Shown here piece after piece: positions 4,525 through 55,441 of a DNA stretch of 64,000 bases (position 1 is its first letter; every line of letters begins with the position of its first letter). Source of the stretch: Eledone cirrhosa (taxonomy: Eukaryota); the NCBI GenBank assembly GCA_964016885.1, contig OZ024747.1:24552001-24616000 (forward strand), given 5' to 3'. The notes under the pieces were generated by a model. That model was not told the origin of the DNA, made no database searches, and was given only the letters and a program-made list of their open reading frames with translations. The translations under genes and the position numbers were made by a program.

Positions 4525-4579
4525 ACTGCTATATATATTTCAGTGACAGCCATCTTTGGCTGTGACCTCTTCAGGCAGT
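4525..4579 (-). ncRNA. Type I hammerhead ribozyme motif (canonical core) in a Penelope pseudo-LTR-like repeat
   Basis: Minus strand: actgc CTGAAGA ggtcacagcca-aaga-tggctgtcact GAAA tatata TA gcagt; stem I actgc/gcagt, palindromic stem III. Confidence 0.8.
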
Positions 4580-5157
4580 TTGAATTAGTATGGTATAGAC
4601 AAGTACATATGTTGTTTAGGTGTATGATATTGTCATTACTCTGATATGCCCAGTTCCTTGTTGGGTTGTTAATTGACTGGGGAACTGTCGAGTGCTCCAG
4701 CCTGCATACTGAGGTGTTGGTATACAACCAACATAAACTCAAAATCTACATATATATATATATATATATATATATATATCATCATCGATTAATGTCTATA
4801 TTCCACGCTAACATGGGTTAGAGGGGTTTGGCCCATTTAGAGGCTGGGTGCTTTTGCCGTGTCTTTTACATATGTCCACTTTACAGTATATATATATATA
4901 TATAAATCAAGATGGATTCAGCTTGAAAATGGTTAGACCATTACTCAACAGAGTTCTTGATACTTGGGGTAGTAGAGTTTAGTTATGTTATAAAAAGTTG
5001 GGAACCTAACAGCTGAGCTCAGCCATTGGGGTCCTGACTCTTTACTGAGGAAGGTACCGATATCAGCACTCTATGCTATAGCAGAGTGTATATATTGAGA
5101 ACAAAATAAGGTTTCTTTTATTGATCAGGTTCAGTTATGAACATTTCACATATGGGT

Positions 5158-5567
5158 GTATCCAGCCAGAATTCTCTCACCTCTTTCTGATCAAACCAGC
5201 CATAACTGGCTGCTCATATTTATGTTAAGGTATTGTTCTCAATATAAATAATATCAAAATCTCATAGATTCGATATAATTGTTTCTACTTTTGGCACAAG
5301 GCCAGCAATTACCCAGTGCATTACTGGTACTTTATTTTATCAACCCCATAAGGATGAAAGGCAAAGTTAACCTCGGCGGGATTTGAACTCAGAATGGCAA
5401 GGGCCGTAACTCTATACGTCAAAGGATGGCGTCTGACCCTCTACCGATACTGCCAATCCACCGCCTCTCATAGATTCGATATAATATGAGATAATTATGT
5501 AAGATAAAGTGTTTACGGTGAAAATACAATAGTAAATACGGAGTAATGTAAATGCTAAAGGGTCAAT
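5158..5567 (-). mobile_element. piggyBac-like MITE copy interrupted by a SINE
   Basis: Reverse-complement homology to 52905-53121; terminal aaatgctaaagggtcaa. Confidence 0.6.
5280..5465 (-). mobile_element. Full-length family A SINE with 20-bp TSD
   Basis: TSD tctcatagattcgatataat at 5260-5279 and 5466-5485. Confidence 0.9.
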
Positions 5568-5861
5568 GCTATAGACACGATACTAGTCCTAACTACTCAC
5601 CAGACTTGTTAATCAAGCAAAACCAAAATCCTGTTAAACATTCGTAACTGAAGGTGATCAATAAAAATCTCAATGTGAAACCTTGTTTTGTTCTTTAAGG
5701 CCATTTAAATATAACTTATTCATTATGTGACTAATGTTTTTTTATTTAACACCTTACATTGTATTTGTTTCTATATGTATATATATATGTATTAAAGCCT
5801 GGTTAGTTTCTCAACTGATATATTTCTATATATCATTTAAAATGTTATATATATATATAAT

Positions 5862-5921
5862 TTTCATTCTGACGAGCGAAGTTAGACTCGTCTGTCTTCG
5901 TGAAACCTTTGGTAAATGAGA
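5862..5921 (+). ncRNA. Type I hammerhead ribozyme (fully canonical)
   Basis: tttcatt CTGACGA gcgaag...cttcgt GAAA cc-ttt-gg TA aatgaga; stems I, II and III all pair; predicted GUA cleavage after 5914. Confidence 0.85.
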
Positions 5922-6152
5922 TAATTATCTTATGTTGTTTATTACATAACTAAAAAGCTCTGTAGTTTACATAGAACACTCTCTTTTCCTTTACGTTTGG
6001 AAACACTTCATATATATATATATATATATATATATATATATATATATATAGAGAGAGAGAGAGAGAGAGATATCCAAGATGTATAACAGATTTGACTCTA
6101 CAAGTATTGAATTACCTTGTACTTTAAATAAATGTTTGTTTTTGTTTACAGG

Positions 6153-6465
6153 TGAAGGCATGTGGCTTAGTGGTTAGAGTGTTGAGCTCGCAATCATGAG
6201 ATTATGAGTTTGATTCTCAGATTGGGTCATGCGTTGTGACCTTGAGCAAGTCACTTTATTTCACATTGCTTTCAGTTCATTCAGCTGGACAAAATGAGTT
6301 GCAACATCACTGGTAAGATGGGGGGTCTGTGGTTTGCCTTGCGAGACAAACTACAAACCCTCCATCTCAATTCTACTTTTGAAAAGCATAAGAACTATGA
6401 AAGCGGTAAAGGAAATAAATATTCTTAAAAAGACTCCAGTTACATTTTCAATTTCTTTTCCTTAT
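6153..6465 (+). mobile_element. tRNA-headed SINE (family B head) joined to a 3' segment also present at 11953-12092
   Basis: tggcttagtggttagag A-box, gagtttgattc B-box, ccttgagcaagtcactt core. Confidence 0.7.
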
Positions 6466-6558
6466 ATATGTGTGTGTGTGTGTGTGTGTGTGTGTGTGTG
6501 TGTGTATATATATGTATATATATATCAAAAATTAGGAAAATCTGCTTCGTAGAATCAA

Positions 6559-6653
6559 GACGTATCCGACGACCGAGTGATGTCAGAGTCAGGTTTGATC
6601 ACCATATCGATTGTGCCTCGAGCTGGTCGCCCGAGAAACAATTGTAATATGTC
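6559..6653 (+). ncRNA. Hammerhead-like motif with extended stem II
   Basis: gacgtat CCGACGA [62-nt imperfect hairpin] GAAA caattg TA atatgtc; 7-bp stem I; core has U4C. Confidence 0.6.
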
Positions 6654-7324
6654 CAATAAATTCCTTTCGTCGCAACACTGATTCTCTTTTTTCTGTGATA
6701 TCATACTCTGCTCTACGATGGCATTGAGTGCTCATGCAGCCTACCGCATACGGACGCTTTAAGATAGATAACACCATCTTTGGTGCTGGTGTTATGATGG
6801 AATGCACTAGATGCACCCTGTTGAGTGCAGGAATGTTATGTTAGTAAGATGTGACACCTTGATCTGTCTGAGAGGTCAGTAGCTCTGATTAAATACTGTG
6901 ACAAACCATCTAATTCCATCAAGGAAAACAGATGTTAATGATGATGATGATGATTATATACATATGTGTGTGTGTGTGTGTGTGTCATGTGCATATGTGA
7001 GCATAATTATGTAATGTTTGTATGGGTGTGTATATACATAAGTCAATTACAAACAGTTAAATATCGGGGGGGGGGGGGGCTAGCTGAACAATAACAACAA
7101 TATTTGCATGTAAGTGTGTATATGTGTGTGTGTATATATGTGTGTGTGTGTATATATATATATATATATATGTGTGTGTGTGTGTTTGTGAGGTGTGTGT
7201 ATATATATATATATCAGTATGTAAGTATGTGATGTCACATGTCCTAAAGTGGTGTGGAGGGGAGAGTTGTTTTATCTCTAATGAGCAATTCTTTACTTCC
7301 ACCACTCTTTCTCTCTCTTTTCCT

Positions 7325-52900: not shown

Positions 52901-53125
52901 TTAACCCTTTAGCATTTTACATTACTCTATATTTTCTATTAAATTTTCACGGTAAAAGCTTTACCTCACATAATTATCTCACATAATATCAAATCTATGA
53001 GATTTTGATATTATTTATTTTGAGAACAATACCTTAACATCAGTATGAATGGCCGATTACAGCCAGTTTGAAAGAGGTCAGAGAATTTTGGCTGGATACA
53101 GCTGGTTTAAATGCTAAGGGGTCAA
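52901..53125. mobile_element. piggyBac-like MITE
   Basis: TTAA-ccctttagcattt ... aaatgctaagggg-TCAA. Confidence 0.65.
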
Positions 53126-53299
53126 ATTGGCAAAAACAAAAGTGCAAGTAGAAAGGAAAACAGGGCCTGGTTCTATCAGAGATATGGCCTTGCTTAGTAT
53201 TCAGGAAAGAAGAAGATAAAAATTCCACTCAATGTTTCAAATGTAAAACTATGTATACACAAGAGCACAGGAGCAGTAAGCAGCAAGAGCTCACATGAG

Positions 53300-53920
53300 A
53301 CAAATTCTATCAAATGCTAAGAAGGTTCCCTAGAAGTAGTTGACATCTTCTGTTAATTGGATGACTAAATTAGCAGTGGAAGTGGGTGTTCTGAAAGTAC
53401 AATAGCTAGAGTGCAAATGTGGTGAAAACAGTTCAATGGCCTACTTCCATTGCTAGCTACAAAAGGGTTTTCCTTCAAAATGAAAGATAGATTGTATTAT
53501 GCTTGTGTGTAAATAGCATTGCAGCATGGAAGTGAGACTTAGGCACTGTGTGTAGAGGACCTACAAACATCAGAAAAAATGAAGCATGCATGCTCTGATG
53601 GATATGTAATCATAGTGTACATGAACATGAAGGGTCAATGGAATGAAAAGCTCAGCTTAAGAGGTGTCAGATGCAGTGTGTAGGAGAGGAGACTGTGATA
53701 GTATGGACATGTGATGCGTATACAGGACAGCTACATAAAATGGTGTAAGGTGCTTGAAATTGATGGAGACTATAGAAGAGAAAGGCCTAGGAAAGTTTGG
53801 GATGATGTAGTAAAAGCTGACCTCATGCAATTAAACCTCCCAAAGGAAATGACACAGGATCAAATTCACTAGCAATATACCATGCTGCAGTACAGAATGA
53901 AACAAGCATGGAAAGAATGA
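53300..53920 (+). pseudogene. Decayed RTE LINE 3' half
   Basis: GSLEVVD, KGFSFKMKDRLY, HGSET, YGHVMR, RPRKVW remnants. Confidence 0.75.
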
Positions 53921-54375
53921 TAGTTTTCCCTATTCTTCCTTGTATACCTTGACCCATTTTAATACTACCCTGTTCCCACCTCATTCACTCTCCAAGTAAC
54001 CCACCTTAGCCTTCCTCCACTAACTCCTCCTATTCCTATCTTACTTAACCAACTCTTTAAAAAAAAAAAGGAACACTACTTTCAGATTAAAAAATGCCAT
54101 TGCAACAAAGTTATCATTATTTTGAACAGTTAATGCTCTATTTGCACACTATTTTCTGTGTGTAAGTGCATATACACACACACACACACATATATATATA
54201 AGAAAAGAAATAGGAGTATCCATTTATGCAGGTAACATAATTTTTCAGCTCTTGTAGTCAATTGCATTGAAACACATGTTAGAAACACTAATATCTTTGT
54301 TATGTAATAAAACTTTCTTCGAATTTCAACAAATTTTGCTTAATTTTTCCTAGTACCCTGTTGGCATTATATATA

Positions 54376-54684
54376 TTATCATCATTTTACGTCCGCTTTT
54401 CCCTGCTTGCAAGGGTGGGACGGGAACTGATTCTGGCTTGATTTCTACAGCTGGATGCCCTTCCTAACACCAACCTCATTTACAGTGAGTGGCACCTCCA
54501 TGACCACTTTGCAGTGGAATGATATGGACCTCAGTCCCTATCATCTCATTTCTACAGCTGAGTAAACTGGAGCAATGCGAAATAAAGTGTCTTATTCAAG
54601 GAAACAACACATCACCCAGTCTGGGAATTGAACTCACAACCTTTCGATTGCAAGGCCAATGCTCTAACCACTAAGCCAGGTGCC
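54376..54684 (-). mobile_element. Family B SINE
   Basis: Reverse complement of 25570-25905. Confidence 0.9.
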
Positions 54685-54685
54685 T

Positions 54686-55180
54686 TATATATATATATAT
54701 ATATATATATATATATATATATATATATATATATATATATATATATAATATATTATATATATATATATATATATATAATATATATATATATATATATAAT
54801 ATATTATATATATATATATATATATATATATATATATATATATATTATATATATATATATATATAATATATTATATATATATATATATATATATAATATA
54901 TTATATATATATATATATATATAATATATTATATATATATATATATATATATATAATATATTATATATATATATATATATATATAATATATTATATATAT
55001 ATATATATATATATATAATATATTATATATATATATATATATATATAATATATTATATATATATATATAATATATTATATATATATATATATATATATAT
55101 ATATATATATATATATATATATGTATATATATATATATATATATATATATATATATATATATATATATATATATATATAC
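54686..55180. repeat. ~500-bp near-pure (TA)n tract
   Basis: Direct reading. Confidence 0.95.
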
Positions 55181-55385
55181 AGTGAGTGGTATATATATAT
55201 ACATGTGTTTCTTATTGGCAACATGACCCTCCCAAAGTATAACAATATCGGTTTCAACACACGTTTTCAGATAAAGAATCTTGCTAAACAAATTCAGAAA
55301 CGAAATATATATATATATACACACACAAACACACACACATACACACACACATAAGTCAATTGCATGAACTCATAATCCTTTATTT

Positions 55386-55441
55386 ACTGCTATATATATT
55401 TTGATGATAGCCATTGAATGGCTATGACCTCATCAGGCAGT
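55386..55441 (-). ncRNA. Hammerhead motif with G12A mutation (same family as 4525)
   Basis: Minus strand: actgc CTGATGA ggtcatagccat-tca-atggctatcatc AAAA tatata TA gcagt. Confidence 0.65.

Follow-up and report, generated by a model that had tools for sequence, protein, structure and literature searches.

Hammerhead motifs in a 64-kb window of Eledone cirrhosa as probable 3' pseudo-LTR footprints from three sister subfamilies within one Penelope-like retrotransposon

A 64,000-nt stretch of the Eledone cirrhosa genome (contig OZ024747.1 of assembly GCA_964016885.1, forward-strand positions 24,552,001 to 24,616,000; hereafter the window) carries three hammerhead ribozyme (HHR) motifs, each within a 130-275 bp 3' end, or pseudo-long terminal repeat (pseudo-LTR, pLTR), of a Penelope-like element (PLE). 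A descriptor search of both strands of the window returned these three motifs and one unrelated motif (5864-5919), and nothing else. A first-pass annotation had placed the three at these coordinates and strands, which our analysis confirms with copy 2 delimited as 40057-40118. The motifs (copies 1, 2 and 3 in the order of their coordinates) and the insertions that hold them are as follows.

4525..4579, minus strand: minimal type I hammerhead motif of subfamily A (copy 1), core intact, G10.1-U11.1 wobble
4474..4687, minus strand: 5'-truncated pLTR end of subfamily A, 97.2% identical over 214 nt to the full-element pLTR of locus L041
4687..4748, plus strand: inverted arm of the same insertion as 4474..4687, a 62-nt piece from the very end of the element's long tail that abuts (TA)n; it matches L041 at 100% over its 62 nt, oppositely oriented
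39940..40177, plus strand: 5'-truncated pLTR end of subfamily C2, 86% identical over 240 nt to L146 and 79-83% to L144 and L151
40057..40118, plus strand: minimal type I hammerhead motif of subfamily C2 (copy 2), core intact, predicted cut after 40113
55350..55479, minus strand: 130-bp pLTR stump of subfamily B, 98.5% identical over 130 nt to L158, flanked by (TA)n and (TG)n
55386..55441, minus strand: minimal type I hammerhead motif of subfamily B (copy 3), G12>A, a change predicted to abolish catalysis

The hammerhead core, stems I and II and a common C-C mismatch are present in all three motifs, as first described: CUGANGA, GAAA and NUH follow one another in order together with both stems, and this type I arrangement is complete in copies 1 and 2. 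Stem I measures 4-5 bp, the helix III segments are AU-only, and stem II is built of three base pairs, the C-C mismatch and a further 7, 9 and 8 bp in copies 1, 2 and 3, respectively. Copy 1 (core CUGAAGA and GAAA, stem I of 5 bp) has the self-complementary helix III segment AUAUAUAU, and its cut is predicted 3' of AUA, between 4530 and 4529. Copy 2 has two defects that the first-pass annotation overlooked, namely a C-A mismatch at pair 2.1-1.1, next to where cleavage is predicted, and a helix III segment that is two nucleotides longer and has lost its self-complementarity. Copy 3 reads AAAA in place of GAAA and thus lacks G12, the general base of the hammerhead.

The folding z-scores of the copies are -2.6, -2.5 and -2.5 (3-4 of 200 shuffles folding equally well), and a loose core pattern has 12 matches in the window where 1.84 are expected, a count reached by none of 100 shuffles. 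Helix III is not stable in the monomers, with a pair probability of 0.02-0.15, which is the expected behavior of minimal PLE hammerheads. Copies 1 and 3, though not copy 2, could form an 8-bp intermolecular helix III, and two AUAUAUAU segments are predicted to form a duplex at -3.2 kcal/mol. Cleavage by these motifs, as well as the AUA cut site, is a prediction. The window copies themselves are likely inert, because each stands alone, G12 is missing from copy 3 and the palindrome is gone in copy 2. The fourth motif (5864-5919, plus strand) follows an AT-rich run, belongs to another sequence family and displays a full core, a 5-bp stem I and a GUA cut triplet; its 26-nt pattern matches that one genomic place only, its fold z-score is -0.7, and it is possibly an old pLTR stump.

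Copies across the genome were located by sequence patterns. The pattern shared by the motifs has 11,022 exact matches in the 3.0-Gb genome (5,547 and 5,475 by strand), against 0 for the reversed-pattern control, while a B-specific 30-nt pattern has 2,411 matches and a C-specific pattern 156. The "three-copy family" initially proposed therefore has to be replaced by a population of thousands, in which the window copies represent three subfamilies and are not copies of one sequence. The mean density is one exact match per 272 kb; three copies in 64 kb exceed it, degenerate copies being uncounted, and we make no claim of clustering. An Rfam scan, the check suggested with the original description, does not recover the motif: on L041, which holds three HHRs, none of the three was detected at E<=10 among 18 matches, none of which belongs to a hammerhead family (RF00163 included), and no hammerhead appears among the 150 listed of 186 matches in the window, those listed being microsatellite-driven microRNA matches.

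The three window copies belong to three sister subfamilies, copy 1 to A, copy 2 to C2 and copy 3 to B, since a tree computed from the flanks only separates the A, B and C2 groups. Groups A (99/100) and B (100/100) are both recovered, and the C2 group, which includes window copy 2, is nested inside C (98/87). This tree comprises 75 rows and 108 columns, with 16 of 26 A rows and 10 of 41 B rows, rows with an upstream microsatellite being omitted. The subfamily A stump terminates 56 nt past the predicted cut site, where it joins (TA)n, and repeat-contig depth climbs and drops at its limits, the three DNA-like contig sets used being possibly from the same sample as the assembly; among the sequencing runs listed as carrying the sequence there was no RNA data set. 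The C2 stump, older and more diverged, is followed by a TA/GT microsatellite, and its 5' limit is approximate.

Full copies identify the element from which such stumps derive. They read HHR, open reading frame (ORF), 1.1-1.2 kb untranslated region (UTR), HHR, with units of 4,097 bp at L041 and 3,973 bp at L158. At L041 (family A), an inverted HHR at 1836 is followed by an HHR at 3526, broken reverse transcriptase (RT) and GIY-YIG frames at 3776-6431 and an HHR at 7623, that is, a pLTR-ORF-pLTR unit whose final repeat ends in (TA)n, plus an inverted arm. At L158 (family B), two identical same-strand motifs lie 3,973 bp apart around the ORF. The layout of endonuclease-containing (EN+) PLEs, a pLTR-ORF-pLTR partial tandem with an inverted 5'-truncated arm and an optional tail, is thus found at L041 and L158, and window copy 1 has the arm and the tail. 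A B-type HHR occurs 0.9-1.3 kb downstream on the same strand in 21 of 30 loci chosen by endonuclease similarity, and at L106/L113 a C-type HHR lies 1,144 bp after the RT and EN frames. Subfamily C2 is tied to the element through flank homology and the tree.

The longest natural open frame, of 847 aa in the B copy at L102, contains a YRDD motif. Its AlphaFold model, built with 62 homologs, has a pLDDT (predicted local distance difference test) of 78.7, and the best five Foldseek matches to this model are all telomerase RTs (E 7e-9 to 6e-8), so that, as far as the model indicates, the element has the single ORF for a telomerase-related RT that defines an EN+ PLE. A PDB sequence search with the element protein gave no match. 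The upstream pLTR of this B copy (L102:2690-2730) has its hammerhead mostly deleted. Other Penelope-like families, one with a different endonuclease finger, lie near these elements at L033:5255-6955, L111:22-1692 and L104:6178-8001; their nearness likely reflects shared (TA)n targets.

The first-pass annotation had read the motifs as footprints of a Penelope-like or retrozyme retroelement. The Penelope half is borne out by identities of 97%, 98% and 86% between the window copies and element pLTRs; the retrozyme half is not, there being no short tandem arrays and a single same-strand pair under 1 kb apart among 100 listed matches counted by eye. Retrozymes are non-autonomous and consist of short units in tandem from which small RNA circles are produced; membership among them would account for a type I HHR with a weak palindromic helix III. 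Non-LTR retrozymes likewise have a type I HHR, dimer-dependent in some hosts (PMC7229834), retrozymes derive from PLE pLTRs (bioRxiv 10.64898/2026.07.22.740005), and the one same-strand pair lies 494 bp apart. Real retrozyme units, however, are 150-450 bp tandem repeats (PMC7229834), and we found no such non-coding tandem units with an HHR in each: the window copies are solo, variably 5'-truncated, held by no tandem repeat and collinear with ORF-bearing elements. We consider this the least probable of the explanations weighed here.

As to the clade, Hydra-type PLEs are defined by RWK, DKT and CxCX5C motifs, CxxC and CxH near a conserved E and N, absence of the CCHH finger, (TA)n targets and HHRs (PMC8557442). 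Family A shows all of these protein motifs and family B shows RWR plus the rest; family C was checked for the EN motifs, CCHH is absent, and the interval from GIY to YIG contains a single Cys. Among 120 homologs, DKT/S is present in 112, CxCx5C in 95, RWK/R in 66 and DKG in 1. The (TA)n preference is likewise seen, most A and B ends joining (TA)n, and the HHR lies near the 3' end as in that clade. The probable Hydra-clade assignment rests on these protein motifs. Neptune, our initial guess, and Nematis were rejected, as the CX2-5CxxC linker finger and the endonuclease CCHH are absent in A, B and C. Published Hydra elements are generally shorter than 3 kb, a descriptive and not a diagnostic trait, whereas the present units of ~4.0-4.1 kb have a long 3' UTR and a low-complexity RT-EN linker; their tail is ~100 nt long compared with 30-40 bp, and their HHR is unlike every Hydra HHR, including that of Hydra-1_Obim, in the portion of File S2 compared by eye (PMC8557442). 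Another Hydra-type element, more distant, left a degenerate linker and GIY-YIG fragment at window positions 44227-44653 (minus strand), which is 30-35% identical to family B and interrupted by stops and frameshifts.

Selection on the RNA fold is supported by the comparison of natural A and B elements, in which the 55-nt HHR motif is 85% identical, the upstream 1,000 nt 41% and the downstream 51 nt 47%. In 80 distinct motifs, 94.2% of cells are paired compared with 92.5% in shuffles (0/500), and 36 cells show a double change compared with 12.6 (0/500); the cell counts are per sequence, and a single A-versus-B/C change is behind 20 of the 36. Stem II differs among the window copies yet remains paired, as first reported, the differences being subfamily states. 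Three of its pairs show G-U between Watson-Crick states when arranged by subfamily (C-G/U-G/U-A, A-U/G-U/G-C and G-C/G-U/A-U), and at the subfamily level stem II has five G-U/U-G pairs and zero A-C, which fits a sense-strand RNA. Length changes to 7, 8 or 9 bp also retain pairing.

Could this covariation have arisen by chance through common ancestry, as a hairpin was copied, with the RNA structure unselected? Independent double changes are few, and the measures based on event types do not exceed shuffles, although the same 80 motifs do so when cells are counted: 6 pairs with a double change compared with 4.7 (108/500) and 19 further pair types compared with 19.7. Moreover, 36 inserted B copies, found via the endonuclease, decay in the motif at nearly the flank rate (1.9% of cells, 31/1640, compared with 2.7%, 229/8575; p=0.07), so that no post-insertion constraint is clear in them. 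Shared descent fits poorly, however, with an 85% island amid 41-47% surroundings, with stem II states that include five G-U/U-G pairs and no A-C, and with three stem II lengths that all stay paired, and we judge it improbable. The first-pass claim of selection on RNA structure hence holds for active lineages, where the sequence comparisons support it through few independent events, and not for inserted copies.

The same annotation called the GAAA>AAAA change of copy 3 consistent with CpG decay, which is plausible and not demonstrated. G12 is changed in 395 genomic copies, against 11,022 intact ones. Among 100 listed of the 395, inspected by eye, C-A accounts for 68, C-(C/T) for 20, T-A for 9 and T-(C/T) for 3, giving transition:transversion ratios of 3.4 in CpG and 3.0 in TpG context, that is, a similar bias whichever of C or T precedes G12. 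In family B coding DNA, CpG sites show more transitions (2.7% compared with 1.2%, p=0.001) and equally raised transversions (19/960 compared with 43/5190), each being about twofold higher.

Insertion ends were mapped in nucleotides past the predicted cut site. Copies of A end at +50-59 in 12 of 27 cases and at +150-159 in another 12; B copies end at +50-59 in 41 of 46; and C copies end at +50-69 in 22 of 39 and at +120 and beyond in 13. Two fixed end points thus emerge, ~52-56 and 150-155 nt past the cut site and joined to (TA)n. Ends less than 10 nt or so from the cut site itself are seen in 3 of 112 copies. Five inverted A pairs have the short end on one arm and the long end on the other, and among 100 listed of the 11,022 matches, examined by eye, there are 17 divergent pairs less than 2 kb apart, besides the one same-strand pair less than 1 kb apart mentioned above. 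The signature of tail plus inversion is already published (PMC3846280, PMC8557442). The 100-nt tail between both ends also contains a bulged hairpin common to A, B and C (L041:3655-3705 and matching B and C loci). Across 11 sequences, its alignment fold contains 15 pairs, of which one shows a double change, and single-sequence folding is not significant (z -0.7 and -0.5); it is a candidate protein-binding or RT-start signal, to be taken as a lead only.

The nearest parallel for these ends is Poseidon PAc of Anolis, in which a tail likewise lies between two fixed ends of insertion, both past the HHR, with AT-rich targets, and the two ends correspond to two internal reverse-transcription starts (PMC11167929). 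PAc is of a different clade, and its HHR overlaps the start codon so that its ends lie within the ORF, whereas both ends here precede the likely start codon, ~207 nt past the cut site in L041. The HHR of PAc cleaves only with protein (PMC11167929).

Taken together, we interpret the motifs, with a probability of roughly 85%, as HHRs in the 3' pseudo-LTRs of a Penelope-like retrotransposon that has Hydra-clade protein motifs and is represented here by three sister subfamilies, the window copies being likely stumps of early-stopped reverse transcription; the mechanistic part is inferred. By analogy with PAc (PMC11167929), the element protein would nick (TA)n and start reverse transcription at either of the two fixed points, internal to the RNA. 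Reverse transcription would then copy through the uncut hammerhead, so that even the shortest stump carries an HHR, and an inverted second arm would often form. In a full element, two same-sense HHRs ~4 kb apart could pair their AUAUAUAU segments over 8 bp and cut slowly, likely aided by protein, releasing unit-length RNA; slow cutting of dimer type was proposed earlier for motifs with no activity as monomers and low activity as dimers (PMC4209133). Unit release would hold the fold under selection in active lineages, and lone stumps without a partner would likely not cut and then decay.

Several observations beyond the event-type counts weigh against parts of this interpretation. On the protein side, Pfam detects no RT family on full ORFs or on 63 aligned homologs, and the C-terminal GIY-YIG domain, though its motif is visible, matches PF01541 (E 7e-4 to 8e-3) with a score under the curated cut-off. 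In 14 loci retrieved for C2 and related copies, no ORF adjoins any C2 copy itself; 3 of them have ORF matches, 29-42% identical, at least 4 kb upstream. On the RNA side, the 8-bp helix III forms in a cofold of copy 1 with stems I and II partly misfolded, and the core of family B (window 55386-55441; L026:1500-1555) is predicted to mispair with the 3' strand of stem II in an inactive alternative fold. Young C has a subfamily-wide A-C at the outer stem I pair (25 cells), and in C2 all 9 of the 9 retrieved copies that have a GCAT/GTAT loop, like the window copy, carry C-A next to the cut site, two mismatches which suggest that efficient cleavage is dispensable.

These latter points also bear on a reading in which the element is the same and the fold is retained as a protein-binding or folding signal beside the reverse-transcription start, cleavage being rare or irrelevant. 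It would explain why C2 spread despite its fixed mismatch, why a young A clade fixed the G10.1-U11.1 wobble and why genomic ends avoid the cut site; in addition, HHR mutants of PAc insert normally, and RNA ends at its cut site were not found (PMC11167929). Yet every catalytic core position, and the NUH triplet too, is conserved between families with UTRs too diverged to align, which a binding site would not require, and the PAc HHR does cut in the presence of protein (PMC11167929). Such a role without regular cleavage is possible, and we lean towards the interpretation that includes slow dimer cutting.

The feature itself is ordinary and published: hammerheads were described in Penelope pseudo-LTRs in 2014 (PMC4209133) and in the Hydra clade in 2021 (PMC8557442). 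The metazoan PLE hammerheads of PMC4209133 share with ours a helix I of 4-5 bp, a long helix II and a small palindromic helix III; they occur as thousands of mostly solo copies, with opposite-strand pairs 100-700 bp apart and a few tandem pairs around an ORF, and form consensus families with compensatory changes and predicted dimer activity. Unlike those motifs, ours, as parsed here, lack an unpaired nucleotide at the base of stem II and instead have a C-C mismatch after three pairs, and a helix III that is a pure (AU)4 run. They also differ from retrozymes in their link to a coding element and the lack of short tandem units (PMC7229834). Literature searches, with most subscription journals and Repbase outside their scope, found no paper on these families. 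What is new is the particular families, the long UTR, the long tail and the graded stem variants.

The remainder of the window is rich in other repeats. A SINE-like (short interspersed nuclear element) dispersed repeat of ~180 bp, with copies 85-96% identical, occurs at 319-497, 2129-2316, 5272-5465, 9830-10025 and 10741-10926, with further copies at 15268-15448, 19342-19535, 31951-32109 and 42902-43089. Two 1.2-kb copies (20132-21293 and 40389-41557) are 92% identical and carry what we take to be RT end fragments of LINE (long interspersed nuclear element) type; 32307-32894 is presumably another non-LTR fragment and 21738-22055, we assume, a transposase-like fragment. Large minisatellite arrays span 35638-39553 (54-bp units) and 49414-52060 (45-bp units).

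For genome annotation, the gain is at least 11,000 copies of the families described here, which escape both Rfam and Pfam. These families also offer test material for a question still open in print, namely the role of Penelope hammerheads (PMC8557442, PMC11167929): stem changes are graded among the sister subfamilies, there are full elements in which both motifs are intact, and the insertion ends are sharply mapped. We put forward, as a speculation that we hold rather doubtful, that the subfamilies form a natural series in which the hammerhead was kept folded but tuned down, amplified subfamilies having fixed a G10.1 wobble, a core-mispairing stem or a cut-site mismatch, and in which the conserved hairpin of the ~100-nt tail between two fixed reverse-transcription starts would be the real cis signal. 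If this is true, the comparison of A, B, C and C2 would directly address whether Penelope hammerheads need to cut.

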